From Atractiella rhizophila (Eukaryota): 64,000 nucleotides of DNA. This document shows, piece after piece, positions 13,285-56,830 of this stretch. The notes beneath the pieces are model-generated. The model searched no databases. It saw nothing but the letters and a program-made list of their open reading frames with translations, and was not told the origin of the DNA. How positions within the stretch are numbered: position 1 is the stretch's first letter; every line of letters begins with the position of its first letter. The position numbers were made by a program, and so were the translations under genes. Location: positions 139,189 through 203,188 of the forward strand of contig MU271181.1 of NCBI GenBank assembly GCA_021432655.1. Direction: 5' to 3'.

Positions 13285-16200
13285 ATGTCGGAATCCTTTA
13301 ACGCATTTAAGATCGAACCGCTGAAGCCGAATAACTGGGTGGCGTACAAGAGACGCATCACAGCCGTCCTGCGAGAACTCGATTTGTTAGACTACGTTAA
13401 CGGAAAAAAGAAAAGACCTACACCAGTCGTGGTGAAAGGCGGAGAAGGTGCAGAAGACACCATATCGAACCAAGAAGAGATCGACGCATGGGAGACGAAG
13501 GACGCCAAGGCCCAGACGCGCATCGAGTTGACGATAACCGATGGCGAATTGATCCATTTGACTGGCGCGAAGACGGCGGCGGAGATGTGGACGCAGTTGT
13601 GCGCGGTGAAAGAGGCGAAAGGGATAATGGGAATCCTGGCAGCGAGGAGACGGTTGTATCGCTCGTATGCTGAGGAAGGATTCAGTATGGTGGAACACAT
13701 CTCCGCATTCAGAGGAGTTCAGGAAGAACTTGCCTTGATGGGGGACACCTTGAAAGACGAAGATTTCGCTTTCCTCCTTATCACATCACTTCCCGAATCC
13801 TGGGACACATTCACTTCCGCTTATTTTGGTGCAAACTCCAACCAACCGACCCCTATCTTCCTACGAACTATCAGCATTGCTGATCGAAGAGGAGAGGCGG
13901 AGGAAGGAGAAATCGGGAGCGCTAGAGACAGCGCTGTTTGCGAAAGGAAAAAGGGTGTCGAAACAGAAGGCAGGAGGAGGAGGTGGAGACAAATCCGACA
14001 TCGAATGTTTTAACTGTCACAAGAAGGGACATGTTAGAGCAGAATGCTGGGCAAAGGGAGGCGGAAAAGAAGGCCAAGGGCCGCGAAATAGCAATGGAAG
14101 AAAAAGGAAAAAGCGTACCAAGGAACGGCGCAAACGTCGAACGTAAACAACGCACTCGCTGACTCCGCGTTCAACGTGCAGGAGCATTTCGATAGCACAC
14201 TCTCCAAGAGCGTGTGGCTCGCCGATTCTGGAACAACATCGCATATCAGTAACAACTTAATGGGTTTCATCAAAGAAAGCTGCGTACCTCTATCCAATTT
14301 CAAGATCCACGGTCTCTCGAAAACACCCATCGACGCAACAATGCGTGGAACATATGAGCTACCTGTCCAAACAGGCGATCAAACAGCCGTTATGACGCTC
14401 AAAGAAACCTTGTACGCACCGTCAGCCCCCAACAACCTCCTCTCCATCAGCCGACTCGACAACGCCGCGGCAAAGGTGTCTTCGGAGGAGGAAAGGTGCA
14501 GCTGTTCAACAAGAATGATCAGTTGCTGGGAGGAGGAAGGAAGAAAGGAGACTTGTACTTACTGGAAACAGTTGAAAGAGGGGGTGAGAAAGTGATGGCG
14601 GTGGAAGGGAGACATACGCGAACGTGGGACGAGTGGCACCGCGCGTTCGGCCACATCAACCCGAAGACTTTGGAGGAGCTGCATAGAAAAGGGTTAGTGG
14701 AAGGAATGGAAGTGGATGAGAGCAGCTCACCTTCGCAGTGCGAAGCCTGCATCCAAGCGAAACAGACACACGGAGCCTACCCACAAGAAGCATCAACACG
14801 ATCGGAGACGCCAGGAGAACTCACTTACTCAGATGTATGGGGACCTTCTCGCGTTCCCTCGTATGGTGGATCCCGATACTACATCTCATTCACGGACGAT
14901 TGCACGCGGCGCACAACCGTCCTCTTCATGTCCTCGAAGGATCAAGCGCTCGCGCGCATTCAAGCCTATGTCCACCTCGTCGAGCGCAAGTACGAACGTA
15001 CTCCGAAACGAATTCGCGTCGATCGAGGAACGGAATACCTAAACGAAAAAGTCAAGGACTGGTTAGAAAGAGAAAAAGGAATTAAGCTAGAACTCACCAC
15101 ACCACACTCGCACCAACAACTTGGCGTTGCGGAACGAATGAACCGCACGTTGATCGAGCTCGCACGCGCGATGCTAATCGCAAAGAATCTCAGTCCAAAA
15201 CTGTGGGCTGAAGCAGTCAAACATGCGGCTTACCTTAGGAACCGGTCACTCACCCGAGCTCTCAAGGAGAAGACTCCTCACCAAGCCTGGACCCCGGAAA
15301 AACCGAAAGTGGAGCACCTTGAAGAGTTTGGAGCAGATGTATGGGTGTTGGATGAAAGGCTAGAAAGATCAAAGTTAGATCCGAAATCAATCAAAGTAGT
15401 TTTTGTTGGGTATGAAGATGGTCCCAAAGCAATAAAGTACTTCAATCCTCGAAACGGAAAGGTCCTCGTCTCTCACAACTATGTCTTTAAAGACTCAAAT
15501 GGAAAAGAGATTGAAATCCCGACAGAACCGATTCCAATAATCACAGAAACGCAAGGAGACAACATACCAGCTTCCCCGAATGCCCCAGATCCACCTCCAG
15601 CACTCTCAACCCAAGAACCATCCACACAAGTCAAAATCCCAACGGCGGACGCAGCGAGAACGAGAAGCGAAACCTATGAATCAGGATTAGGAAAAAGAGC
15701 AAGACCTGAAATAGACTACTATACCTTGAACTACGGGAAAGCGAGGCCAAAGCCTCGAGCCAAACCAGCAACGTCTCCATTGCCCAAAGCGCCAACTCAA
15801 CCAAGCGAGGCACAAACAGTGGCAACCGATGCCGCCAACTTCGCATTCGCTTTCGCAACCTCAATCGCATTGAACGACGACCCTGCCAGTTACGACGAGG
15901 CAAAGCAATCGGAGGACCATAAGCAGTGGGAGGCTGCGATGGAAGATGAAATTAATCAGTTGAAAAATTATGGAACTTGGAGAAAAGATCTAGTGGACTT
16001 ACCGGAGGGAAGAAAAGCAATAGGATCTAAGTGGGTATTTCGTCGCAAGAGAGATGAAAAGGGGAGAGTGAAGCGCTATAAAGCAAGGCTAGTAGCACAG
16101 GGATTCAGTCAGATCCCAGGGCAGGATTTCAACCAGACCTTTGCCCCTGTGGCTCAGTTAGAATCCTTGCGAGCCATTATCGCACTCGTAGCAATTAGGG

Positions 16201-17435
16201 GATGGAAAATACATCTTATGGATGTCATCGGAGCTTATCTTAATGGAGAGTTGGAGGAAGAGCTCGAGCTGTACATGAAACAGCCTCCTGGATTCGATGA
16301 CGGCTCAGGAAGGGTCCTGAAGCTTGTGAAAGGACTTTACGGGCTCAAGCAAGCCGCAAGAATATGGAATATACGACTTAACAAAGCTCTGACGGAGCTT
16401 GGATTCACGAGAGCGAACGCAGACCACTGTGTCTATGTTAGAAGACAAGAAAACCAAATAATTGTCCTCCTAGTTTGGGTGGATGACATTGTCATTATCG
16501 GCGATGATGATGATGAGATTGCAGAAGTCAAAAAGACAATTCAGCAAGTCTTTGATGTGACAGACCAAGGAGAAGGAAATCTACTTCTTGGAATACAAAT
16601 TATACGAACCAATGGAACCATCGCCTTATCGCAGGCAAGCTACATTGAATCGATGCTTGCGAAGTACCGTTTGCAAAACGCCAAACCGGTACCCACTCCG
16701 CTTGATATCAACACCAAGCTACTCCCCAACGAAGAAGAAGTCAATGTCGAAGCCCAGAAGCTGTATCAAGCGGCGATTGGCTCACTCATGTACGCTGCGC
16801 TTGCCACACGACCCGACATTGCATTTGCAGTTCAAACCCTCTCTCAATTCTCCTCGAACCCGAATCCATCGCACTGGACAGCAGTCAAACGTGTCTTTCA
16901 ATACCTCAAGACGACAAAAGACTTTGCACTCACTTATGGAGGAGAAGGAGGAGGAATTAGCGAAGTTATGGGATTTACGGATGCGGATGGAAATTCAAGT
17001 GAAGCAAACAGGAGGAAAGCCATCTCCGGGTATGTCTATTTACTTTCAGGGGGTGCAATATCTTGGTCTGCGAAGAAACAGACAACAACGGCACTCTCAA
17101 CGACGGAAGCCGAATACGTCGCCCTCTCGCACGCCGCACGCGAAGCAATTTGGCTACAAAAGCTGTTTGCAGACTTGGGATTTCAGACAGACGAACCAAC
17201 GGCTCTCTTCGGCGACAATCAAGGAGCGATCGCGTTGGCCCACAACCCCGAATTCCATCGTCGCACTAAACACCTCGACATTATTCATCATTTCATTCGC
17301 GATCACATCGAACTTGGATCAATCGCAGTCTCCTACATCCCCACAGAGGAAAACCCCGCTGATATCTTCACGAAGGCACTTGCAAGAATGAAGGTAGAGA
17401 AATTTAGTGAAGAAATGGGATTGATGACAGTCTGA
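13285..17435 (+). CDS. Copia gag-pol polyprotein, frameshifted in the 5' part
   Basis: Gag LITSLPESWD; knuckle CFNCHKKGHVRAEC; protease WLADSGTTSH; WHRAFGH...CEAC; integrase SDVWGP, VDRGTEY, GVAERMNR; RT YKARLVAQGF and WVDD; RNase H DAD...EAEY...DNQ...ADIFTK. At least 3 frameshifts (about 13850, 14120-14140 and 14470), then 979 open codons. Confidence 0.95.
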
Positions 17436-17442
17436 GGGGGTG

Positions 17443-17634
17443 TGTTGTTCTCGGTTCATCCTGCCATCTCAGTTGAGTGGTCATTACTTGTTCTAAAATA
17501 TTCCTACTTGGTCTCATGTTTTCTGGTTTCTCACTATCTTACTTTTTCTTGAATGTTCTAGAATAATGTTTCTACAAGTATATAAAGACTCAAAAAGGCG
17601 AAATAATAATCATTGCAATTCCACAATAACAACA
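17443..17634 (+). repeat. 3' LTR of copia element
   Basis: Copy of 12977-13168, preceded by the GAGGGGG purine tract. Confidence 0.97.
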
Positions 17635-17639
17635 GTGGG

Positions 17640-18890
17640 TGGGAGAGGAGTATCTGTAATCACTATTTGGTTTGTTTCAGCAGATGCAGCACAGGGGACT
17701 CACCTTGGGTCGGCTCCAAAGAAGGAGAATCCTGTCCAACGTCATGTCAGCTTGCTGTTCTTATGATGAAAATTAGATGTGTACCTGTGATTATACTTCG
17801 GCTTCACCACTGCCGTTACTTGAGGCGCCGGTTACTCTTTTTGCTCTCGTTCGCTGCAAAGAGGAAATTTATTGGAAAAAATGCAGAGAGGAGTGAACAA
17901 CTTGCCTTCGAGAGGGGGTTACTGCCATCGGACGGAGGCACTTTCAGTTTAATTACCCGTTTCTTCTTTCCTTCAGGCTCAACAACCCTGTCTTGTTTGG
18001 ATTCCATCAAAACAGCGGTGGTAGAGCCCTCTTGGGTGGTTACGCTTGTTTCTATGTCCTGTAGTATTACCCTTCATCAGTGAAGTTACTTGTTTAAGTT
18101 GGAACATACCAGACGCTTTCTTTTCAAGGTATTGACATTGCTGCCACTGACGTTAGACATTGCCGTGGGTGTCTTCTGTTGCATCCTACTAATCAACGCT
18201 AATGGGGAAGCGGAATTGAGGTACTCACAAGTTTCTTGCCCGGGACCCTCTTTGCATGTTCTTCATAGAGAGTAGTGAGCAGCATCTCGACAACTTGTGG
18301 TGCGTATGCGTCCAAGAGGGATTTCCCCCCATTCTCTTTTTGAACCTGAGTCGCTTCCGGCATTTTCGATTTCTGTAGAGAGGATGTGCGTGAAATAATA
18401 ATTGAGCATCCCAGACCTGCAAGTAAGCGTAAAATGTTGGTCAGAGAACCTAAAGAATCGTAGCTCTTTGCGTGAGTCCTCCAATTCAAGCTCAGAACAT
18501 CATGTAAAAATAAAAAGCCGCCATGGTCTTCATCGTCAGGATTATCCTGGGCCGTAGAAAGCTGCCGGATAATATGTTCCAGAGCGGGATGAGCAGGTTG
18601 AGATGGGAAATTGAGATCCTCCAGCTCTCTGACAAGTTGAAGCAACCCTGTTACATGAGGAATGGATGGAAGACGAGTGGAAAAGAGTCCTGCAGCGTTA
18701 TAAGCAGGACAGCAGGCGGAGAAAGGCACTTACTCTTAACATTCGAAACTTTTTACAGTATAGAGGTTAGAAACTTGAAGGTGGTCACCCACGTGCGAAA
18801 AAAGTGCGTACCAGTGGGAGACAGATCAATATCAATCCCTACGTTGGCAAGCGCTGCCAAAGCAGTGGTTGTTTCGGATTCTATGGACAT
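17640..18890 (-). pseudogene. Unknown intron-containing gene fragment, apparently interrupted by the copia insertion
   Basis: Minus-strand ORFs 18199-18729 and 17816-18010 with intron-like gaps; no recognisable domain. Confidence 0.3.
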
Positions 18891-18999
18891 TTTGAACTGA
18901 GGCTACCAAACTGGTTAGAATCTAGCCAATGTGGATAAAGCACATACATTGCTCTTGACTGCACTTTGAACGGTTGACTGGGGAGGGAAGTTTGGGTGG

Positions 19000-20118
19000 T
19001 AATCTGATGAAGTGCTCCCTAGCAGCCGTAATCAATACCAATCAATCAACAAAGGAAGAGACAAACATGGGGCCAGTTTCTTGCGGTTGTTTCTGGAAAT
19101 TTTTGTATGTTTCCCTGCACCAGCTCCAATCAAGAAAGGTTTACATTGAGGATGGAACTAAGCTTACCGGTGTATGCAAGTTTGAGATAATTTCTACTTC
19201 AGGCTATCAAATAACAAACCATGTTCGTTACTCAGCAAAGAATGTTCAAAAGCAATACGCACCAAAGTGTTTGTCCTGTCTGCTTGATTTCTTGTTCTTG
19301 ACAAGCCTTTTTTCTCCTTCTTTCTCTGAGCGTCATTCCGATTCGCAATATAGTTTTGAATGAGCTTCTTTGCCTTCCAGTTATTATAACATAGGCCAAT
19401 TCTGGAATCTGAGCTGACTAGAGATTGACAACCAAGCTGGATGACATGCAGATGCCCTTTAAGAAACTGAAAAGATAGTTTTTTATCTGGAAAAGAGTCC
19501 ACCGGGATTTTCTGCAACATGACAGCGATCGCAACAGGTAGAAACACATCCTCTACCTGCCTGACTTCATCTGATGAATATTTTGACCCATCTGGGTTAC
19601 ACAGCAGACGGCTATTAGCAAAGCCGGTTGGATTTTTGCCTTCCACTCTGCATCAGGCACATCCTTTGCATCTTTCTCATCCCACAACACTTCGATTGGA
19701 TATTCAGGTGGGCGATGCATTGGTTGTGGTGTTGTAAACACTCCACCACGCTGTCATTGAAATGAAAGTAGAACAAGAAAGACACACATTTTGTGAGCGA
19801 GTCCAGTTCGCAGTTCTTTAGTTGCAGTTCCTGATTCTTTGCCTCCAAGTCCACAATTCGACTTCGTTGATACATTCTGTCCTGGTCTGCCTCAGCAATA
19901 CGAGCCTTGAAATTGTCTTGATTTTCAAGGAACGAACTAAGGAGGAGTTGAAGGTTGTTGGAGGAGAGATTTGGGGTTGGTGGAGCTTCCGGTGCAAGGG
20001 CATTGAATGAGAGAGCGGTTGAATGGGTTCCTTGGCCATAAAGGCCAGGAGATGATCCTAAAAGTGCTGACAAGTCGCTGTTAGACCATGTAGCGTGTGG
20101 TGTTGAGTCTGAAGACAT
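19000..20118 (-). pseudogene. Accessory gene of CACTA-like element 1, divergent from the transposase
   Basis: MSSDST start, coiled-coil stretch, then RPPEYPIEVLW...LLCNPDG...IGLCYNNWKAKKL; same layout as 52200-53551. Confidence 0.6.
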
Positions 20119-21054
20119 CTTGAGAAGGTCAGTGGCTGTTTTGAAAGTAAAAAAAAGTATTTTTTTTGCACTGTAGCTGCACGTGATTCTACAAGCTGCC
20201 TGCTACTCAATTATCTGCAAATAAATCAGAAGCAATCTCTTCAAAACCCTTCTTTACCAATAGCTTTATGCCACGGCAGAATTGACATCAGAATGCGAGC
20301 CAAAGAGCCATGTCTCTGCTATTCCAAAAGGTGTTGTGAAAAAGCGGAATGGACAGCTGGTTTGGCTTGATCCTAGAACTATTCGAGAGCATCGCAAAAA
20401 AGATCTCACTCTCGCACAACGTTTGCACTCACAGTGGTCTCCCTATTATGCCAGAGTTGCAGGTGGCTCTGGATTTTTCAACCAAGTACCGCCGGCAACC
20501 TATACAGCCCATATCTGCTTTAAGAAGACAGCAAGCACTTGAAAATCAGAGAGATGATGGAGACGAGACTCCAGAAGAACAACATGCAGAACTCATGCTG
20601 GATGTAATGGCATCAAGCCTAGGAAGGTATGCACTTATAATCATTCACCTGACAATCCGCTAATTGCCTTGCAGCTCGAAAAATACTCCAACTGATGTAC
20701 ATCACGACCTCTCCACACTCTCAACCCTTTCTCCTTCTCCTCTCCATCAAGCCATAACAGAGGATAATGAAGATCAAGAGTCGGACGATGAACTGCACCT
20801 GCATCTAGATGGGCAATATTATTTTGCAGACGTGCAGGTGGGATCGTACATGGCAGGAGAATCCGAAGAAGAAGACGTGGAGAATTCGGCAGGATTAGAG
20901 GGATCAGACATTGAAGATGGCGGTGAGGGGGTGGCCAATCCTGAGAGTGGTAGTGAGGGACATGATCAAGGTGGCATCGATCCGGACGAGTGGATTGCAC
21001 AGAGTTTCCGACGTCGGTATGAGGAACTCAAGCAAGAATTTCCACACCTTCTAC

Positions 21055-21555
21055 NNNNNNNNNNNNNNNNNNNNNNNNNNNNNNNNNNNNNNNNNNNNNN
21101 NNNNNNNNNNNNNNNNNNNNNNNNNNNNNNNNNNNNNNNNNNNNNNNNNNNNNNNNNNNNNNNNNNNNNNNNNNNNNNNNNNNNNNNNNNNNNNNNNNNN
21201 NNNNNNNNNNNNNNNNNNNNNNNNNNNNNNNNNNNNNNNNNNNNNNNNNNNNNNNNNNNNNNNNNNNNNNNNNNNNNNNNNNNNNNNNNNNNNNNNNNNN
21301 NNNNNNNNNNNNNNNNNNNNNNNNNNNNNNNNNNNNNNNNNNNNNNNNNNNNNNNNNNNNNNNNNNNNNNNNNNNNNNNNNNNNNNNNNNNNNNNNNNNN
21401 NNNNNNNNNNNNNNNNNNNNNNNNNNNNNNNNNNNNNNNNNNNNNNNNNNNNNNNNNNNNNNNNNNNNNNNNNNNNNNNNNNNNNNNNNNNNNNNNNNNN
21501 NNNNNNNNNNNNNNNNNNNNNNNNNNNNNNNNNNNNNNNNNNNNNNNNNNNNNNN
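21055..21555. other. Assembly gap (501 N)
   Basis: Run of N. Confidence 1.
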
Positions 21556-23337
21556 CCCTCTGTTATCTAGCGTACTGAATGTTACTTCGCTGCGCGAGCG
21601 GAATATCGTAATGCAACGGCTGAAAGTAAAAGGTTACTCGCTTGGTGACAAGGCAGACGTTCTACGTAGAAGGGGCTGAAGAGACTAACTCTTATATAGG
21701 ATCGTTGCAGAAGTGAAAGTATAAGTCAAGGGTATTGCCTGCATTCCATTCTGACTTCACGTCAATTCTACGGCGAAAGTTCTCGTCTTAGTTTGCAGGA
21801 TCTGGTACTAAACCGCCTTTTTCACAAACAAGAAAAACAGCCAAATCCTGACCACAGTTGCACTCCTTACATCTCGAACTCTTATAAGTCAACAAGCGCG
21901 ACCTAGTCCAATAAGCGATCAAGCCGTATACCGTCAGAAGCACTTGGATCGAACAGAAAGAGTCAAGGATCTAAAGCGAGGTTTCCTTCAACACACTTCA
22001 AGTAATCCGAAGGATCTTAGAACGAGTTCCCTTGTTATACGTCTTCGACTACGTCCGAGTAACCTTGTGCCACTTGGTCTCGTCCCTACAAGGCGTGCAT
22101 CTCGAGGAGTTTAGGTCACGTTTTCGGCGAGTACTTCCTTGAACGTGAAACTTCAACACTATTTCTCCGCCGTACCTACAAACACTACTAAAACCGACGT
22201 CTCTGTTTAAAGCAGGTTACAACATACTCGAGCTACACCTTCGGTTGAAGGTCGTTATACCCTTACCTTATGGTTACGTGGGTAGGTTCGGTGAGCATAT
22301 AACTTATAGCGCATAACGCCTTGAACAGATCTAACGCTTACGCCAAACTCTTCGCACGACCGTTTAGTTAATGGCGCAACAGGTATTCGAGTGGTTGTTC
22401 CTAAAAGACTAGACATCTTTCTTCCACAGCCAGAGGAAGTTGTCCGAGGTGGAAAGGCGAGGTATTCAGGGTATCTACCCCTCAATGTAAGAGTATCTCT
22501 TCCACCCGTTCTAGGCCACCTTTCTTCTTTCAACCCTTCTTTCAGCGTTCGGACCTGGTCTAATGTGTGAAATGTTAAGGTTTGAGTCAAGCATCGAAAA
22601 GAGAAGTACAGACTAAACCACGTAAAAGCTAAACAAGTTCTATAAGCTTTATCCTGAGCAAACAAGCTTCTCCCTCTCGTAGACCTAATGTTCACAGGCC
22701 AGCTAAACGCAATTCCAAGCATTTCCCTCTGTCGACCAGTATTGGGACTTCGCTCCACAGCAGTCTCCTTTCATCAACCATGACTGTAAACCACGTCCGG
22801 CTGTAGGAGAGTTATCTGTTTGGACGTGGGTGCTTGGGGGACCACAGGACAGTAAGGTAAGTAGAAGACCCTTGGTCCGTATAGCCGTGTTGTACGCGTT
22901 TCCATAGGAAAGGTATCCTTCCCCGCAAGAAGATGCGATAGGTGTAGGTGTGAGGATCTCTACGAACACGTTTTAGAAGGTGTTTACCTATTTTTTTTGA
23001 GAGCTATAACTGTCCTCCCAAACCGGGTCCTTACCGTCGTTAACCGTCGAGCTAACACAGGACGTAGGACGGAGAGAAGACATCCTTGTAATTTTCTAAA
23101 CTTCGTATTAGTAGGTTTGGAGAGGAAAGAAGAAGTACGATTCGACTCGTGGTAGTCACCTGTCCCTCTTTTTGGGTCATGCTCCTAGTAGTCTCTCCAA
23201 GTCTGTAACAACATTGCAAACTTCTTCAAGTGGTAGACGGTTTAGGAATATATGAGCTAGGCGAAGCAAACGGTTTCGCTCTGGAACGTAGTCTCAAGAC
23301 ATCAACGAGGCGTAGTTACGGCGGTAAGAAGATAGCT
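21556..23337. other. Reversed-but-not-complemented segment (probable assembly artefact)
   Basis: Read right to left without complementing, it gives FSLSTDGAQ, AIPGPNPPVNIESFFYPF, ADMPGSQKMNGMTGHQGVRGCRF, FFPPDLAHLLYEN and GSLMNFTQLPLERNLG, colinear with the transposase at 53707-56830. Confidence 0.95.
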
Positions 23338-24589
23338 TGACTGGTTTATGGAAAGTATGAATATGGCGGGAGGGAAGGATATGCTGAGGCAATAATATAC
23401 ATAAGATTGCCCGCCAATCTAGCGGTTTCCAGCGCAACACACATTGTTGTCAGCCGTTGTATTTCTGTTGCACAAACTCACCCAGGAGAGACTCTTTTGG
23501 GAATGTGAGACGAAGCCATACACAAACGTGACAGTGGGACGATACCTTCTGACTTTCTAATGCCTACTGCTGGTACTTGTGCGCTAGAACAAGAAGTACA
23601 ATATGAGCTGAGAACCTCATCGACAGACGACGGACGGCGTTGATACAAGCACCAACACCGAAACGGTGCTGAAAAACTGCTGACATCGGACTGTCGAACA
23701 TTCAGTCACTTTTGGCAGACTGAACTTTGCCCGTGCAGTAACTGGCTTTTGACGGAACTGACTTAATTCTTACCGAACCCTGTTTTCATAGAGCTTGAAG
23801 GTCTATCAGCTTGAGGAGATTTCATCACTTCCTTGGATGGAAAGGGACCGCAGGGCTGTTCTTGGGACTAGGGATAGAGACCATTTCCTTGCTCGCGGAG
23901 TGGACGAGACTGGGCTGTGATGGATGGGACAGAGCAAAGATGCACTGGGGGAGAACTCCATCTGGAGACGCATTGCCCCTACAGCTGCCAGATAACGAAA
24001 ATTGGCGCGTTGATGTCCGGGTCAGGCTCTTCGGATACTGCCTGTTTTGACCGCAAAGGTGTTTGAGCTCAAAAGGAGCCTGAGGACTTTCAAATGTTTA
24101 GACCAGAAACAATAAACATTCTTCTCAGACATGGGTTAACTTAGAAATGAGCATTGTCTAAGAACCGAATCTAGCTTACTCATCTTGACACCATTTGTCA
24201 ACTTATGCATCTCCTTGAGGTTAGCATAGGGCTTGTCAGCCAGCAAGCAGCTAAGACATGCTAGTGTGATCCAAAATTCATAATTCGAAGCAATGACAAA
24301 ATCAACGTGGGAACCCACAGGTTCCTGCGGAATTGGTGGGGAAGGATCCTAACCCGTCACCCTCCCTTTATCCCTCACGGGTTTTCGCCTGCACCCACAG
24401 ACAACCCGTACGGTGTACTCCTATTGCCAGTTTGTGTTCCCACAAATGATGCTCTTCTTCTGCCCTCACGTCAGCTTCCTCCACATCCAGTTGAGCAGCT
24501 TTCATCGCTCCAACACCTTTCTTTACAACCCTCTGGGTCTGGGTCGCCTTTTACTCAATGTATGAGTTCTTCCATCGTTGGATTTCCTT

Positions 24590-25445
24590 ATTCTATTGTA
24601 TGACAAGTGCCTGAAGGCATTGATTAGATGCTTGTAGACCCTCGACAACCTTGAGTGCTCGTCCTTCGGTGGTTTGAAGATCAGCGGTGGAAGGTCGGTT
24701 GTTAAGAAGGAGAAGGTCCGCAGTTCGTCTTGAGGTATTTGGGGTGAGCTTATGGAAGGGATCAGTGAAGACAGAAGAGAGTGACATTGAGGGGGATGAT
24801 CCAGAGTTGGCTGCTCCATGTGCAAGTCGACGAAGAGGTTCAAGACCATGATTCATACTGATGTCAACTGGCCAAATTCCGGAGACTTTGAATGCTTTCT
24901 TGATCCAATCCGGCATGTAAGTATTCTTCCTGGTTTCCCTAAAGTAATATGAAAATTGATTCTTGTTTATGTCTTAGCTCATTTGTTGTTAAACTCAAAC
25001 AAATTTATTACGTTTGGCTAAGCTCTTGCAAACACATGAGCAGCAGAAACACAAGAACAGGTGTTTATATACATGAGAGCTTGTGGCAAATAGAAACTTC
25101 CAGAATGTTCATGAAGAAAGTATTACTAACATTTTATACATCTCCAACATCATTGTCCAATGTCCCAGAATAAGACAGCTACAGAAAGCTGAAAATCACA
25201 ATGTCTAGTGGGGAGGTGAGATGGCTAGTATGAGGGATGAGGACGAAGGGAGGGATATAATGAGCAAGTGTGAATGGAGGAAGGAGAAGGTGAGTCAGAG
25301 CCATGACCATCCATCGAGAGAAGCTGCCATTTATGATCGGGGAGCGATTCTCCTCCTCAAAGAAGGCTAGCCACTCACAGCCTAGTTCGTCGTCGGTCCA
25401 ACCGCTGTCTGAATTGGCATAATGTGCCATCTTGATTCTTCCCTC
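24590..25445 (-). mobile_element. pogo/Fot1-type DDE_1 transposase remnant
   Basis: NSDSGWTDDELGCEWL, a degenerate MDGHGS, PHTSHLTSPLDIVIF and IKKAFKVSGIWP; interrupted by an unrelated insert at about 24975-25150. Confidence 0.85.
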
Positions 25446-25469
25446 CATCCAGCTCTTCATGGCCAATTT

Positions 25470-26048
25470 CTGCAGTTGTTCCGGCAATATTTGTATGTTT
25501 CCCTGCACTGGCTCCAATCAGGCAAGGTTTTCATTGAAGATGGAACTAAGCTTACTGGTGTATGCAAGTTTGAAATAATGTCTACTTCAGGTTGTCGGAT
25601 AACAAACCATGTTCGTTCCTCAGCAAAGAATGTTCATAAGCGACACACATTAAAGGGTTTGCCCTATCTGCTTGACTTCTCACTCCTGACAGGCCTTTTT
25701 CCCTCTGAGCGTCATTTCTATTTGCAATATAGTTTTGAATGAGCTTCTTTGCCTTCTAGTTATTGTAGCATAGGCCAATTCTGGAATCTGAGCTGACTAG
25801 AGATTAACAACCAAGCTGGATGACATGCAGGTGCCCTTTAAGAAACTAAAAAGACAGTTTTTTATCTGGAAAGAGTCCACTGGGATTTTCTGCAACATGA
25901 CAGCGATTGCAACGGGTAAAAACATATCCTCTACCTGCCTAACTTCATGTACTGAATATTTGGACCTATCTGAGGTACACTGCAGCGGCTATGGAAAAGT
26001 GGGCTGGATTTTTTGCCTTCCACTCTGCATCGGGCACATGCTTTGCAA
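25470..26048 (+). repeat. Diverged direct copy of about 19080-19668 (CACTA accessory-gene fragment)
   Basis: Long shared blocks such as GATGGAACTAAGCTTAC, GGCCAATTCTGGAATCTGAGCTGACTAGAGATT and TTTTTATCTGGAAAGAGTCCAC (1-nt indel). Confidence 0.92.
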
Positions 26049-27219
26049 GGGCTGATCAGTAAGTTCTCTATGCTTAGAGGAGGGGTCTTGGAGCTTCTTA
26101 TGATCCAACTTCATAAGCCCAGCTTATCCATTTCGTTATGTCTTCTGTTAAACTTCTGGTGGCAAAACAGCGCCTTGATGTTTTGACAATGCATCATTTT
26201 TTGGCATAGCACTGACAGCCTCTATGGGAATAGGTCAACTGTCAGCCTCAAACAATCAAGATCACTTGAGAGATGTAGGGATGGAGAATGTAGACTAACA
26301 ATTGGTTTAGGAGAAGGCATGGAAGAGGAGGAAGAAACAGTGACGGACTGTATCTTCACTACGAGTTGTGAATGGAATGACAGGGGTTACAACATGTTTC
26401 AGGAGCTCTCAAAGCAAGAGGCTCTTGATTGGGATAAACCGAAGTATCATCGATTTAGATAAGCCACTTTGTTTCCTTCTGGAAGGAGCTCATACACTAT
26501 GGACTAGGAATGGATCAGAATTTCCGCTGCAGTTGCCAATATACACTTCAAGGATGCACTATGGGGCTGACAGTCCATCGCAAACAAAAAGGTTGCTATC
26601 AAAAAGTGTGCTCTCCTGGTTTAGCCTTCTCTCATTCGCCTTCTTACTATTGACTGTATTTAACATGTCCTAACTGGAACAAACCTTTGAATACTACTCT
26701 TACTATGAGTTTTACAACTCGAGAGCCAGACTACTTGCCAGCAAGGCTCTGCAAGAGCACTCGCAGAACTTGTATGATAATATCAGGAAAACGGGAAACA
26801 AGATTACAAATCACTATATGTGCGGCGCACCCACGTCCATTCATTCTTCTTCACACCTAGATTTGACTGATGTCGATGAAGCCTCCTCTTCTCCCTGTAC
26901 CATGAATATGGTCATGTCCATGTCTGGTATGAGTAGGGACTCGCATGACAATTAATGATAATATCATAACGGCTAGTCATGACTTTTCAACCAAAATTTC
27001 AATTCATCAGTCATATCACTGATCATACATTGCATTCATGATAAGTCATGATTCTCAGGTGATTATTCATAACATTTCATGATTCAGTCAAGAGGCAGGG
27101 CGAGAAAGAGTAGTTCTGATTGGTTTGTATGTGTATATATGTCTACTTTGTCTTAAAGTACTCAAAAAGCTCTTTGTCTGTCCCAGAAAGCAATCCAGCA
27201 TCATACCAGGAGCCTAAAG

Positions 27220-28876
27220 CTATAGCAGCACGGAATGAATCTTGTGATAGATTTTGCTGGTGATCTGAAGTCCTCCCACAATGAAAGCACATTCCGCATT
27301 GGTACTGGTCACTAAGGAAGGGTCACCAGAAGGCAAGGAGTAAGGAAATGGTACACAACAGGGCAGGAGAGCACAGCTATTGCTAGAACTGCAATCGCGT
27401 GACAAGCACCCAACCGAATAAATGGATTCGCGTTTTGGTTAAGCTTGATGTTGCGAAGGTTATGGTCAAACTTATTGAGATAAGGGATTATGTCAGTAAG
27501 GAGCACCGGTTTCTTAGTAGATACCTTGACCGTTGCTCGATAGAAAGGCTGCAGTCCAGGCTCAGAGCTGCACACATAGGGGACTCCAAATTCTACGCTG
27601 TGAACACTTTTCAAGGCCTCCTGCTCAAATGCGAATAACTCATCAACGCGGATATGCCATGAACGGTGCCTGGCATTTGTTTTCAGAGGAGACATGGCAC
27701 CTAATGTGAATCTAATGGGACGCAACACCACTTCGTTGTGGTTGGAAAACAAGTTAAGGAGGGGTGGAGATCGTTACGGAAGGGGCAGCGTGAGTTATGG
27801 GAAGTATATAACATGCGAGGGAAAACGCTAGGCATGAATGTTCAATATCACCATCAAATTACCCAAGGAATCAACAATATTATTTAAGCAGTCATGCGGC
27901 CATTAATTGCAACGAGTTGAAGTATTTGTAATGTACTAGTAGAAACAGAAGGCATATGGGCACAGAATGAAGAAAGCTCAAGTCATCTAAAGTCGGACAA
28001 TAATGTCTATAAACCGAAGGAATAAACATCTAATCACGGTGATGGTGAGGATCAAAAACCCGTGGGCGTTGGCCAAATGATACGGAATATGCGCAGCAGA
28101 AACGGTTGGCAACTGCGGTTTGACATCTTCCAGAAGACTAGGCAGACGTAGCCTGTCGTATGAGACTGGACATGCGATTTGAACATGCGATTGTAGAGAA
28201 GATGTTAATTGGAAGTCTACAAGACAGTTAGTACTCGCGCACTTCGAGTCTAAAACTCACGGTCAGGGAACGGAGGTGAAATAGAGCCCACCAAGCTTTG
28301 ACCATTCAGATGGTTGTCCAATGGGAATGGAGGGAAAATCGGTGCTCGCATGGCTTGTGGGTAGACGTGAAAAGGCATACTCCATAAAGGGTATACGGTG
28401 TTGACGGAGTTGGGAGGCTGAAAGAGGAATCTATGTGGTCCATTGATGATCGACATCAAAAACCGAAAAGCTAGCGAGGACATACTTGACAGCCTCGGCT
28501 TGCTTTGTTGCCTTATCACTTGAACGAGGTTTACGGACATAGATGGTTTCGCAGCTGTACTACCAAGTGAGAAAGGGAACTGATGTCCTGCAAAGAAGCA
28601 CACCAGATCTCCCTGTCGCTGCAACCCTTGCATTTGTCCATCTCACTCTCCTTCTCACACTTCCTCCTCCATTTGCGGCACACCTAACGAATGACAAATA
28701 GTATTAAGAGAACGGGAGGGGGAAGAAGGGGAAAGACCAACATCGCAAGCCAAATACTTCCTGTTACGTGTAATCTTGGTCTTGTTCTGTTTCTTCGGAG
28801 CAGTCGTTGACACCAGGGAGGAAGGAGGTGAAGGGGTCTGAGAGGTGCTAGCAATTTGCTCTGCTTGTGATTGCAT
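27220..28876 (-). pseudogene. Zn(II)2Cys6 transcription factor gene, probably degenerate
   Basis: MQSQAEQ...RKYLACD, intron (GTTGGT...TTAG), then VCRKWRRKCEKESEMDKCKGCSDREIWC, giving CX2CX6CX8CX2CX6C. Downstream exons cannot be joined cleanly, so the 3' boundary is uncertain. Confidence 0.7.
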
Positions 28877-48374: not shown

Positions 48375-50589
48375 TCATTAGGCTCACTATATATTGACTT
48401 GAAGTACATGCTCGTGTCGTAAAAATTACAATTTTCAGTCTCATTAATGACCAGTACCTAACCAGGACCCATCAGATCATGCATAGTCCATCATTCAGTC
48501 ATCAGGCTTGACCATTTCTCTGTAGGTAGTGATCAGTACCCGTTCCCGTCCCCTCAGACGTGAGGGCCGTCAGGAAATGATCAGTCATTAAAGCTTTTCA
48601 TGATGTCTATCATCCAACAAAACCATCACAAGAGAAACAGTCTCTCATTCCTCCATGAATTCAGACGATAGGAAAGCAGACATTATTTCAATACAGAACC
48701 TCCCACCACTCTTCCAGACAGCAGAAGTCTTATTATATATCCAGGATACAAATGTATTGCCTCAAAAAAAAGTGAAAACATCAGACTCTAGGTCAGAAGT
48801 TTCATGATCAATTATCCACATTAACAATGAGTGGCACTTGCCGTGCAGTTTGATGCCTCAACACACCCTCTCTTCCCACTCTTCAACAGATTACAAAATG
48901 ATCCCAGTGCCCTCACTCTCCTCACCTACAGCTCTGTGTCAAACTTTCCCTTCCCCAGATATTTCTTGATTGCTGCTGCTTTCTCCTTCCATTTCGCACT
49001 CTCTTCCTTTGTATGCTTATTAAAATGGTGACGTCTGTAGCAAGACGTTGTCAGGTTTTCATCATCTTTTGTCCTCGAATGCTTCTCATTTGTTATCATG
49101 CTTTGAGTCAAGGTGGAACAGGAAATGGAACTGGAGAGAGGAGCCAAGGCAGAATGCAGATGAGTGCAAGCTGATTGGGAATTAAGTGATGAAGATAAGG
49201 GAAGTGTGTTGACAATCAATTTCATACTTGTTGTCTTCATCAGAAAGGTCTACAAAGCTGTCATTGAGAGAGTTTGGAAGGCAAGAAAGAGGAACAAGTC
49301 AGGGAAAAGGAGTAGAGGATGATGGTGATAGAGCTTAAGAATGTATTGTAGAATGTATTGTGAAGCTGAAGTCATCCAGCTTCATATAATTTCTGTGAAG
49401 AATCGTCAGAGTCTGAAGTGATGACAAACAGACATACTGTGCCCTCTTTTTCGCTCCTCCTCATGCCTCTCTTTTGTTGTCCTCCCTTGGTTGTGCTCCA
49501 ACTTCAAGTATCCAACACCAGCTGTCCTTGCTCTCTTCAACCAACCCTCTCCAATCTCCCACTGTTCTTTATCCTTTTCCTTCACCAACTCATCATAACA
49601 GATCCTGGAAGCTCATCCAGAACAATGAGGAGCTTCTCTCGACACTCTCTTGTCGATTGGGGAGAAAAAAAGGAAAGAAAACACATCAAGCCTACTTATC
49701 AGTCCAGACTAGCGGTGAAGTGCACATGTTTGGCAAGGCATCCAGAACACAACACAAATGGAACAAACGGATGACATCCACCGATCTCCAACAATACTGT
49801 ACATCCTCTTGCAGCTCGTCCTGATTCCATGTTGAACTCCTCCAAAAATCACCCAAACACACATTTGTATAATCTTCGATAAAAACATGCTGAAGGATCT
49901 TCCTCACTTTAAGGGGTCCCAACACCTCTACATGCCTTGCCAGGTGAAATCCCAGTCCATGGTGCTCAGATCGAGGCAAGGCGCCAACTTGCTCCTCAAT
50001 GGGCAGGTCGGCAACATGGTCATTGATGAGTCCATTCGTCCCTTGTTAAGGACAAATGCTCATTGTGTTCTCACATCAACACCAATGTCACTTTTTCAAA
50101 AATTTCCCTCAATTGTAAGGTCTCCTCCCCCTCACTTTAAGAGGCCCTACTCCTCTGCATGCCTCACTGGATGAATCCCTAGTCACACTGTTGAACATAG
50201 GCCAAGGCGAGGTGTTAACCTGTTCCTCAATGAATAGATTGGCGACCGGACCGTTGGTGAGTTGTCCAGCCCTTTTTTGTAGGATGGACGTGCCCTAACA
50301 GTAAGACAGTATATTCTAACTTGCATTGAGTTTACTTTGTTAAGGTAGGCAAATGTACTTTTTGGCACCTAATATGGGAAATCGCAATGGCACTAAGGAA
50401 ATTGTGTTCAGTTCAGTCTAGTGCTGTTTGGTGTTGTAGAGGACCTACACATAACATTTGCAGCCAAGCAAGAGGCACTAAGCTAATAGCTTTCTGCTTC
50501 CAGCCACAGGTTTGAGTATAATACTAATAATTTCATCTCCTCAGAATAAGATTTCTTCACAGGTTTAGGAAGGGACAAGCACATTGGTT

Positions 50590-53706: not shown

Positions 53707-56700
53707 ATGGCCAAAGGAGATAGCGAGAACAATATTTGGGAGTTTAACTGCATGAAATATTGTGGAGGAGAATGGAGAAGGGTTGGCAAAAGCTCCTATA
53801 ACCGCCATGCTCCGTATCAAGAAGCAGATCAGGCTATGATCGTAGGCATAGGGCAAGAAGACATCTCTGCTAGAGATATGGAGGAACAGGGAGAAATGGA
53901 GGATGATTTCTTGATGGATCTGAGGTTGGGCCACTGGTATGTCGTTATATCAGGTTATTAATTGTCCTAAGATCCTAAGAGAACTTTAGAGCAACAACAA
54001 CGAACATAACATCAACCTCTCACGCCATATTCCTTTGCAACCTCCTTCAGGCTGCGACGGCACTTCTATGCCTGGGGATGGCCCGATCCAAACCATTCTG
54101 AACGAGCTTGAGCGGGTTGAACATCGTTGACTTGTGCGAGACCAATTGGCACATCCAATAGTCGGAGAACCAGGAGAAGAGGAACCCCTAGATGATTTAA
54201 GCGAGAATGAGCAGGAGAAAGATGAAGAGGATGAGGAAGAAGGGGAGGAAGAGGAGGAAGAGGAATGTGATGGAGAAAAAGAAAACAGTGAGCAAATAGG
54301 GGAAAATCATGAGCGTGCGTACTGATACTAGGAATATTATCATACTGACCTTCAATAGTGGACGAGCTGGCTGCAAATCTCTTGTTGGCCGATGAACCAC
54401 TTTGTCGTCTCTCTTGTTAACAGAGAACAACCCAAGATTCTGACAGACAAGTTCATAAGTCATGGAGGAAGAGAAATACGAGTATACTCCATTAACCCAC
54501 GAACAAATTAACTCCCTTGAGCTTTTCATGATTTGCCATGGACGTGCCACTGGAGACTTGTATGAGGATCTTCTCGCTTGGGTGGAGGAGCGATTCAAGA
54601 TAAGCACACTTTCCCTCGATCGAATAAAGTGTTGCATCAAGGAGAAAAGTCATATAATGCCAGAGGCATTTGACATGTGTCCGAACTCTTGCATTGCGTA
54701 TACTGGCGAACGGTCTGAACTCACCGAATGCCCAAAATGTTACCTATCACGCTATCGAGAAGCGACGTCAAAACCAGGCGGCAAGCGCAAGAAGAAGGTT
54801 CCTAGACAACAGTATTTCGTGGTTTCATTTGAAGCTCCCCTCCAGGCTCGCTGGCCACCGAAGAAGGAGCGTCTACGCATAGGGCCAGACGGACGAAAGA
54901 CCTTCTCGAAAAGTGTCCCCAAGATGGGATGCTACCTGATATCCTCGACGATATCTATTGTGGTTCAGATTACCTCAAGCTTGCTCGTGAAAAGAAAATC
55001 TTACCTTCCGATACCGTTCTTGCCTTTTCTCTTGATGGAGCGCAAGTTTTCAACAAGAAGCCTTCCAATGCTATCTTTGTCATTATAATCGATTACAATC
55101 TCCTGCTGGAGATTCGATACAAGCAGCAATATGTCATCCCCATTGCAATTATCCCTGGCCCAAACAAGCCTTGGGATCAAAATTCCTTTCTTCATCCCAT
55201 CTTTCAACGGGTCAAGCAGTTTTCAGTCAAAGGCTATCCGATCCATGATTCCAAGTTTAATATCTGGTTTCGCTCCCGTCCTTTCATTGCCCTGGGCCTG
55301 TTTGATACAATCTGTGCAAGTGAGATGGGAGGGGAGGTTGGCCACACTGGCTGTCGTGGATGCCACATCAATGGCTGCGCTTTAATCGGAGTGCATCAAC
55401 CTGGCACTCCTATCTATTATTTTACTCTGCTGCGGCCGCTCGACTATCAAGAATCTGAATTCGAGCGACCAGATTATGATCTTCGTAAGGCAACAGCTCT
55501 CCAAAGACAGTTTGGAATTATCCGCGATACCCCCTTTGCAGAAATTCCCATATTCGGAAACGGCCCCCTTTCTGTTTTGTTGTCGACGGAATGCATCATC
55601 CGAACCTGAACTTTCCTGAACTTATGCTTGGTCTCTGGCGTGGAACAATTTATCCTACAAACAAGAAACGAAGTGGATTGGGGAAGAGAAAGCGTAGTCA
55701 GATTGCAGCAGCTCCCATTCCCATTCCTGCTGAAGATCGGATGCCCTGGGAAGCTCTCATTGGGCCATTGTGGGAGCAGCATGGAATCGAGGTTGCAAAC
55801 ACCTGAATTCATATCCCCTCATCTTGGGATAAATTCCTTTGCAACATTGACATCAAGTATTCAGATTATAAGGCTAAAGAATGGGAAACATACTTTTATG
55901 GCCTTGGTCCTGGGCTCCTCAAAGGATATATTCCCAAGCTGTACTTCTCACATTACCTCAAGATTGTCTATTGTGTCCGGATCCTTCGAAAGCGTCAGAT
56001 TTCGCAAACTGAGCTCAATCATGTTAAAAATCTCATTATTGAGTTTGTGGAAGAGTTTGAAAAATTGTATTATCAGAGGGACATCCATCGGATCAACTGT
56101 TACAGAATTTCACTGTATAAATTTCTTCATCTTGTTGCCCAGACACAAAGAGTTGGGCCTTTCATCTACGTCACTAATGGACTCTCGAACGAACGATCGG
56201 CATTTTAGGATCACGACTTCAACAGCCTTCACGGCCGTACCAAAATCTGTCTAGACAATGCATCCAGCAAGCTCAATGTCAAGTTTTACGATCAATCGAC
56301 CCCACGCTCATGAAGAAACGTGCACTTTGTACCCTGCCTCGAGGAGCTTTAGATCTGAGAAATTCATATGCTTTGTTGCGAGCTTCTGTAACTTCGATTT
56401 GCAGTGACATAGAAAAGACGGTTGTATCTGCATTTCTACAGCGAATCCATGGGGAGATCGCATTGACGTGGGACGGAAGATTTACGAAATGGGCGCCCTG
56501 CAACTTCCTAACGGCAAGAGAGTTCGCACACGATGGAAAGAGCTCGAGCGGCCTATCAATGAAGTATGCATCAGTCAGAATATTATGTATCTATGACGAA
56601 CCGTACCCTGGCTTGGAACAATGGGGCCCACACGAATTGAAATGCAATATGGTGAGGTATGCTTTTTCTTGGAAGTTTCACTGGCTTCGAGCGTACATCA

Positions 56701-56830
56701 CCTGGCACTCATTCGACCGTACGGCGATTACGAGCAGCGCGACATCCACTCTGTTATTCTGAGCTGCAAGCCGGCTGTTGAAGGTTCCCTATATCACATC
56801 ACTTCTCTGCATTCCCATCCAAGGTAAGGA
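53707..56830 (+). mobile_element. CACTA/EnSpm-like transposase 2 (pseudogene)
   Basis: DMCPNSCIAYTG...CPKC...RY, FSLDGAQ, IPGPNKP, DT...GHTGCRGC, DGMH, YKAKEW, WTLERTIG and YGEVCFF; multiple frameshifts. Confidence 0.93.

Follow-up and report, generated by a model that had tools for sequence, protein, structure and literature searches.

A 1776-nt transposase-related block written backwards without complementation beside an assembly gap in Atractiella rhizophila

Misoriented contigs and gap-closure errors are the nearest described counterparts of the sequence reported here; in ordinary misorientation the affected segment appears as a reverse complement, and it is found by alignment of both strands. 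Because the two strands are antiparallel, an inversion of DNA yields the reverse complement, and we know of no replication, repair or recombination process that reverses the letters without complementing them. Natural mirror repeats, such as H-DNA-forming tracts, do show letter reversal on a single strand, and they are short tracts of two adjacent arms. The gene concerned belongs to the tnp2/Transposase_21 family (PF02992), which bears the Pfam name 'Transposase family tnp2' and is tied to CACTA elements. Plain reversal is otherwise a deliberate device of alignment statistics, and in one article it is adopted as a null model since DNA inversion always gives the reverse complement (PMC5737481). 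A literature search returned no description of mirror-written blocks, or of a bug that would produce them, in assemblies; the papers listed as using the phrase 'reversed but not complemented' appear to concern designed regulatory sequences or other matters.

We analyzed a 64,000-nt stretch of the genome of Atractiella rhizophila, a basidiomycete of the Pucciniomycotina (assembly GCA_021432655.1, contig MU271181.1, positions 139,189 to 203,188 of the forward strand), which we call the window. It contains a 1776-nt block (Table 1) that is sensible only when read from right to left without complementing. The block is reversed but not complemented, as the initial annotation had proposed, and homology, k-mer direction and flank continuity all agree on this; its limits are exact, its gene is of the tnp2 type, and it is colinear with both flanks. 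The window has a single run of Ns, and the first base 3' of that run is the first base of the block, so the earlier remark that the two abut holds to the nucleotide. Once un-reversed, the block reads as a decayed copy of a tnp2/Transposase_21 (PF02992; CACTA superfamily) transposase gene. Very probably it is real DNA of that kind that a program wrote out reversed without complementation, and not a biological feature, with a geometry that points to leftward extension into the gap.

Table 1. Features of the mirror-written locus and of the control copy (positions in the window unless given as nt of the reversed text)
Feature	Position	Strand or frame	Remarks
Forward-written 5' exons of the tnp2-like transposase pseudogene	20511-21054	+	blastx to P0152 and P0151; reach the last base before the gap
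Assembly gap, 501 N	21055-21555	.	119 residues of P0151 (134-252), equal to at least 357 nt, missing here
Mirror-written block	21556-23331	. (plus strand when read backwards)	Runs from 23331 (about P0151 residue 253) to 21556 (inside the predicted intron)
3' part of the predicted intron, ending in AAAG	23332-23355	+	Run contigs align from 23332; the P0152 junction between ...RRARHF and VYEYGG... spans the intron
Next exon, YEYGGREGYAEA..., with a stop at 23506	23356-23520	+	P0152 residues 240-294
Second tnp2-type transposase copy, distantly related, normally written	54423-56782	+	Internal control; split over several frames
Homology along the reversed text	nt 18-233	frame 3	
Homology along the reversed text	nt 236-397	frame 2	
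Homology along the reversed text	nt 391-513	frame 1	
Homology along the reversed text	nt ~520 to 1765	frame 2	

Natural proteins were fetched with the window's own sequences as queries and were then compared with the block by blastx. The open reading frame (ORF) at 54833-55609, within the control copy, retrieved 1052 proteins at E ≤ 0.001, and the best 150 of these 1052 were used. Of these best 150, 125 were matched by the reversed text (283 HSPs, best E 3e-29), in every case in one of its plus frames, whereas six-frame blastx of the deposited text matched 0/150. Seven further proteins, found via P0151, were matched by the reversed text in 7/7 cases and by the deposited text in 0/7. The best match of the reversed text is P0155 (E 3.9e-61, 33.8% identity over 400 aa), which itself reaches 59.1 bits with PF02992 (cut-off 28.6). 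Of seven top hits from the set of 150 that were scanned against this family, three lay above the curated cut-off, two lay below it and two were unmatched. These results uphold the initial reading of the reversed text as a CACTA transposase core, and its motifs YKDLADG, FSLSTDGAQ, IPGPNPP, DMPG...GHQGVRGC, PPDLAH, FTQLPLERNLG and LADGTVVRS are all present from right to left. The same annotation had found no meaningful protein in the six deposited frames, and we concur: none of the 157 natural tnp2/Transposase_21 proteins is matched there, and the ORFs are short, the longest frames in the deposited text of the block being 100 aa (+) and 171 aa (-). The two longest deposited-orientation ORFs within the block have no Pfam family, and the reversed reading contains one open frame of 349 aa.

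The match is confined to the block and to a single letter order. When the whole window was reversed and compared with 152 proteins (P0001-P0152), the sole matching interval was 21621-23338; as deposited, the window matched these proteins at 20511-21053, 23389-23520, 49797-49925 (-) and 54423-56782, with none in the block. The control copy behaves in the opposite manner, giving 419 HSPs as deposited and 0 when reversed. The initial annotation had suggested aligning the reversed translation with 54929-56600, and the two do align, but weakly (two tblastx HSPs, 37-39% identity, E 3e-8); the copy at 54929-56600 is of a tnp2 lineage other than that of the block.

Compared with the 150 representatives (the best 150 of 1052), the left flank gave nothing significant (best E 1.8) and the right flank gave a marginal match (P0044, E 0.047); both the N-terminal and the C-terminal part are lineage-specific. 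Longer relatives sought with the 54833-55609 query were not found, and P0151 as a query returned distant ones alone (25-33%), with no full-length close paralogue; a search of metagenome contigs for an exact 29-nt pattern of the right flank gave 0 matches. Among five distant natural metagenome loci found with P0151, the reversed text is colinear with two and the deposited text with none (0/5). No full-length paralogue of near identity turned up, so that for reversed nt 398-1601, the middle of the block, the support comes from family-level homology together with the composition test described below.

The flanks tie the block to its place. The left-flank ORF at 20664-21053 retrieved P0151 and P0152, which are named hypothetical proteins of Atractiella rhizophila. 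By blastx, residues 1-133 of P0151 (360 aa) correspond to forward positions 20607-21053, up to the last codon before the gap, with 94% identity to the left-flank ORF; on the other side of the gap, residues 253-312 correspond to reversed nt 33-212 and residues 312-360 to reversed nt 251-397, with 98% identity over 109 aa. P0152, a 339-aa paralogue with an internal deletion, bridges the other end: its residues 6-152 match from 20511 onward, residues 194-243 correspond to reversed nt 1602-1762, and the exon directly past the intron shares 82% identity with it over 55 aa. The gene models of these two close paralogues are short, truncated or carry deletions, and P0152 lacks most of the transposase core.

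At its right end the un-reversed text appears to run into the forward text through an intron. The initial annotation had the reversed text ending in RFI followed by GTAAGT, and that sequence is found in the right-to-left reading; it had likewise assigned the acceptor AAAG and the next exon, YEYGGREGYAEA, to the forward text past the block, which agrees with the P0152 alignment from 23356. The intron that we infer across the block end is 50 nt long, made up of 26 nt of reversed text and the 23332-23355 segment, with its donor at 21581 down to 21576 and its acceptor at 23352-23355. Restoring the block in place had been predicted to yield one plus-strand gene, and P0151 and P0152 are indeed colinear through both flanks; the order left flank, gap, block read from 23331 to 21556, right flank is thus the probable true one, judging from these alignments.

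Composition gives the same answer independently of homology. In double-stranded DNA a word is about as common as its reverse complement, unlike its plain reversal, and we scored direction as the log-likelihood of the deposited text against that of its own reversal, with training on both strands of the remaining window. The block scores -62 to -67 with words of two, three and four letters, which give the same picture (z ~ -7.5), whereas the score is positive in 66/66 other windows of 1776 nt (mean +55, sd 16, minimum +16.5). A running score climbs up to the gap, drops across the whole block and climbs again from ~23346, a turning point to be compared with the contig-defined boundary between 23331 and 23332. 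The block has the k-mer direction signature that the surrounding genome shows when its letters are taken backwards.

We compared three public sequencing runs as contigs, X1 and X2 from one sample of the same organism and X3 from a rhizosphere metagenome, and aligned them to 21556-25100. In X1 and X2 the aligned part of the contigs begins at 23332 and runs rightward, with loose ends to the left, and the letters of these loose ends at 23332 are found in the window solely backwards, at 21556-21577 (22/22) and 21556-21585 (29/30). Since the loose ends at 23332 consist of the letters from 21556 backwards, read-derived sequence joins stored position 21556 to 23332, and the block is therefore 21556-23331. 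The interval first proposed, 21556-23337, was correct at its start, but its right end lies 6 bases too far. The single mismatch lies in an X2 loose end and replaces Ile by Val, the residue that the paralogue P0152 has, and the summed depth of the family in X1 is ~1000, compared with ~80-105 for error-free single contigs (about ten copies' worth). Because the family is repeated and the mismatch is as in P0152, contigs with the un-reversed junction may come from paralogous copies; they show the natural arrangement, not the content of this very locus. X1 and X2 may also be the assembly's own source sample, and hence non-independent.

A third loose end, in X2, precedes 23655 and equals 21710-21734 backwards (25/25); this junction suggests a family member derived by deletion, and with P0152 it adds to the internally deleted derivatives that the family includes. 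Contig depth is 0 in 14 bins over 21556-23221 in X1, X2 and X3 at 85% likeness, and such a hole proves nothing; the shares of sampled words in the runs (0.28, 0.24 and 0.06) are compatible with the right half alone being present and are not evidence. In X3, three 151-nt contigs match the right flank (24065-24411 and 25069-25100) with no differences and a depth of ~2, which fits a root-associated fungus as the source and agrees with the species named for P0151 and P0152.

The initial annotation favored a software artefact, and this is the best explanation here, although the gap-filling step itself is an inferred part of it, whether gap filling or extension. Position 21556, beside the gap, is the true neighbor of 23332, and 23331 is the outermost base; the left flank is normal up to the gap in both colinearity and composition. 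In one scheme, a contig starting at 23332 would have been extended leftward into the scaffold gap, and the letters met while walking outward would have been appended, instead of prepended, in the order of their discovery, the product then being placed on the contig's left side. Equally, a reverse-strand extension may have been complemented but not reversed.

An artefact made elsewhere, whether by a finishing or editing script, by file conversion at submission, by some later change to the record or as a control planted on purpose, is unlikely. The N run could be a mask instead of an assembler's gap, and the evidence, drawn from a single case, points to no particular program; however, the N run is followed immediately by the first base of the block, whose other end falls inside an intron without any other landmark, and a start at the gap edge with a landmark-free end fits contig-end extension better than an arbitrary edit. 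It is very much less credible that the deposited order is real and that the chromosome carries a 1.8-kb true mirror copy of the gene. The run evidence consists of contigs, so that the deposited order is not directly disproved by it, but the block is bounded exactly by the gap, its un-reversed form joins on to both flanks with the frame kept and across an intron, its k-mer signature is that of genome DNA read backwards, and in the run contigs it is the un-reversed form that adjoins 23332. Polymerases and recombinases are not known to make such a copy, a matter of established knowledge with which the null-model article agrees (PMC5737481).

An ordinary inversion or a minus-strand gene, present as a reverse complement, is refuted and ranks lower still: the deposited text matched no transposase of either protein set in six-frame blastx, all 283 HSPs lie in plus frames of the reversed text with none in the complemented reading, and the 171-aa minus-strand ORF falls within the range of 1000 shuffles of the block (99th percentile 165 aa, maximum 245 aa). 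That the motifs of the reversed reading arose by chance is the least tenable proposal and is likewise refuted, given an E value reaching 3.9e-61 over 400 aa, the 98% identity to P0151 over 109 aa, a 349-aa frame exceeded in 0/1000 shuffles and larger than any reversed or complemented frame outside the block (212 aa at most in 136 windows of 1776 nt), and the absence of any match when the rest of the window, including the copy at 54423-56782, is reversed.

The reversed text has in-frame stops at nt 398 and 725 and at least two frame changes without an annotated intron to account for them; the P0151 gene model has an intron at the first of the frame changes, and P0151 ends at the nt 398 stop. 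The 1-nt indels pointed out earlier are real frame changes, but they say little for a software origin: the first frame change and the nt 398 stop are common to the paralogue P0151 and are not gap-filler noise. A noisy gap filler as the cause of the indels was rejected also on identity, the reversed text being 98% identical to P0151 and the left flank 94%. We found no inverted repeat of 40 nt or longer in 16000-28000, and among candidate CACTA-type termini the best CACT-initiated pair matches at just 11/20 positions, with none convincing. A complete CACTA (En/Spm) element was therefore rejected; with no terminal repeats and a frame broken by shifts and stops, the sequence is filed as a decayed transposase copy of that superfamily.

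Other sequences in the window were noted as well. In the normally written copy, the ORF at 54833-55609 matches PF02992 at E 1.7e-6 (27.8 bits, just below the 28.6 cut-off), the ORF at 55807-56208 gives a Pfam match of the Pox_VLTF3 kind (E 7e-6, 26.3 bits, cut-off 25), and P0002 is 94% identical to part of the copy. The single short blastx match to the transposase set at 49797-49925 (-) is possibly a fragment of a further copy. Closer to the block, the ORF at 25179-25517 (-) has a weak DDE_1 (PF03184) match (E 0.006, 16.6 bits, below the cut-off); it may have been left by a transposase of the pogo/Tigger type, and this suggests that decayed mobile elements are nested around the block. A direct repeat of ~520 nt (19091-19607 and 25479-25985; three adjoining pieces, 86-94% identical, ~6.38 kb from start to start) encloses the transposase pseudogene, the gap and the DDE_1-like remnant; it could have arisen by segmental duplication, or its copies could be the ends of a larger repeat unit.

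The biological weight of the block is nil, the underlying gene being an ordinary decayed transposase copy, and its value lies in curation. Mirror-written DNA is invisible to alignment and gene-finding tools because they check two strands and not two letter orders; as a result a known repeat becomes an apparent orphan sequence, a gene model is split in two and repeat annotation would be distorted. If the fault is systematic, similar blocks would be expected at other gap flanks of this assembly and in assemblies from the same pipeline. The k-mer direction score, which set the block apart from all 66 normal windows without recourse to homology, could serve as a scan for them. The block also contradicts the premise on which reversed sequence serves as a null model (PMC5737481).

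Among known systems, natural mirror repeats share with the block the reversal of letters on the same strand; unlike them, the block is one 1776-nt coding segment with no forward-written partner in the window, and comparison of the reversed window with the window gave no blastn match at E ≤ 0.01 and, in a smaller search, a 25-nt match alone. With the tnp2/Transposase_21 (PF02992) family the un-reversed text shares homology over ~1750 nt, although this copy is decayed and no CACTA-type terminal inverted repeats were found for it. Misoriented contigs and gap-closure errors resemble it in their position where a contig ends at a scaffold gap, in their software origin and in leaving a broken gene model; they differ in that the block lacks the complement step, so neither strand aligns. 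The reversed, non-complemented decoy of alignment statistics is an identical transformation of text, but the decoy is deliberate and presupposes that such sequence never occurs in real data, whereas the block is accidental and stands inside a sequence record (PMC5737481).
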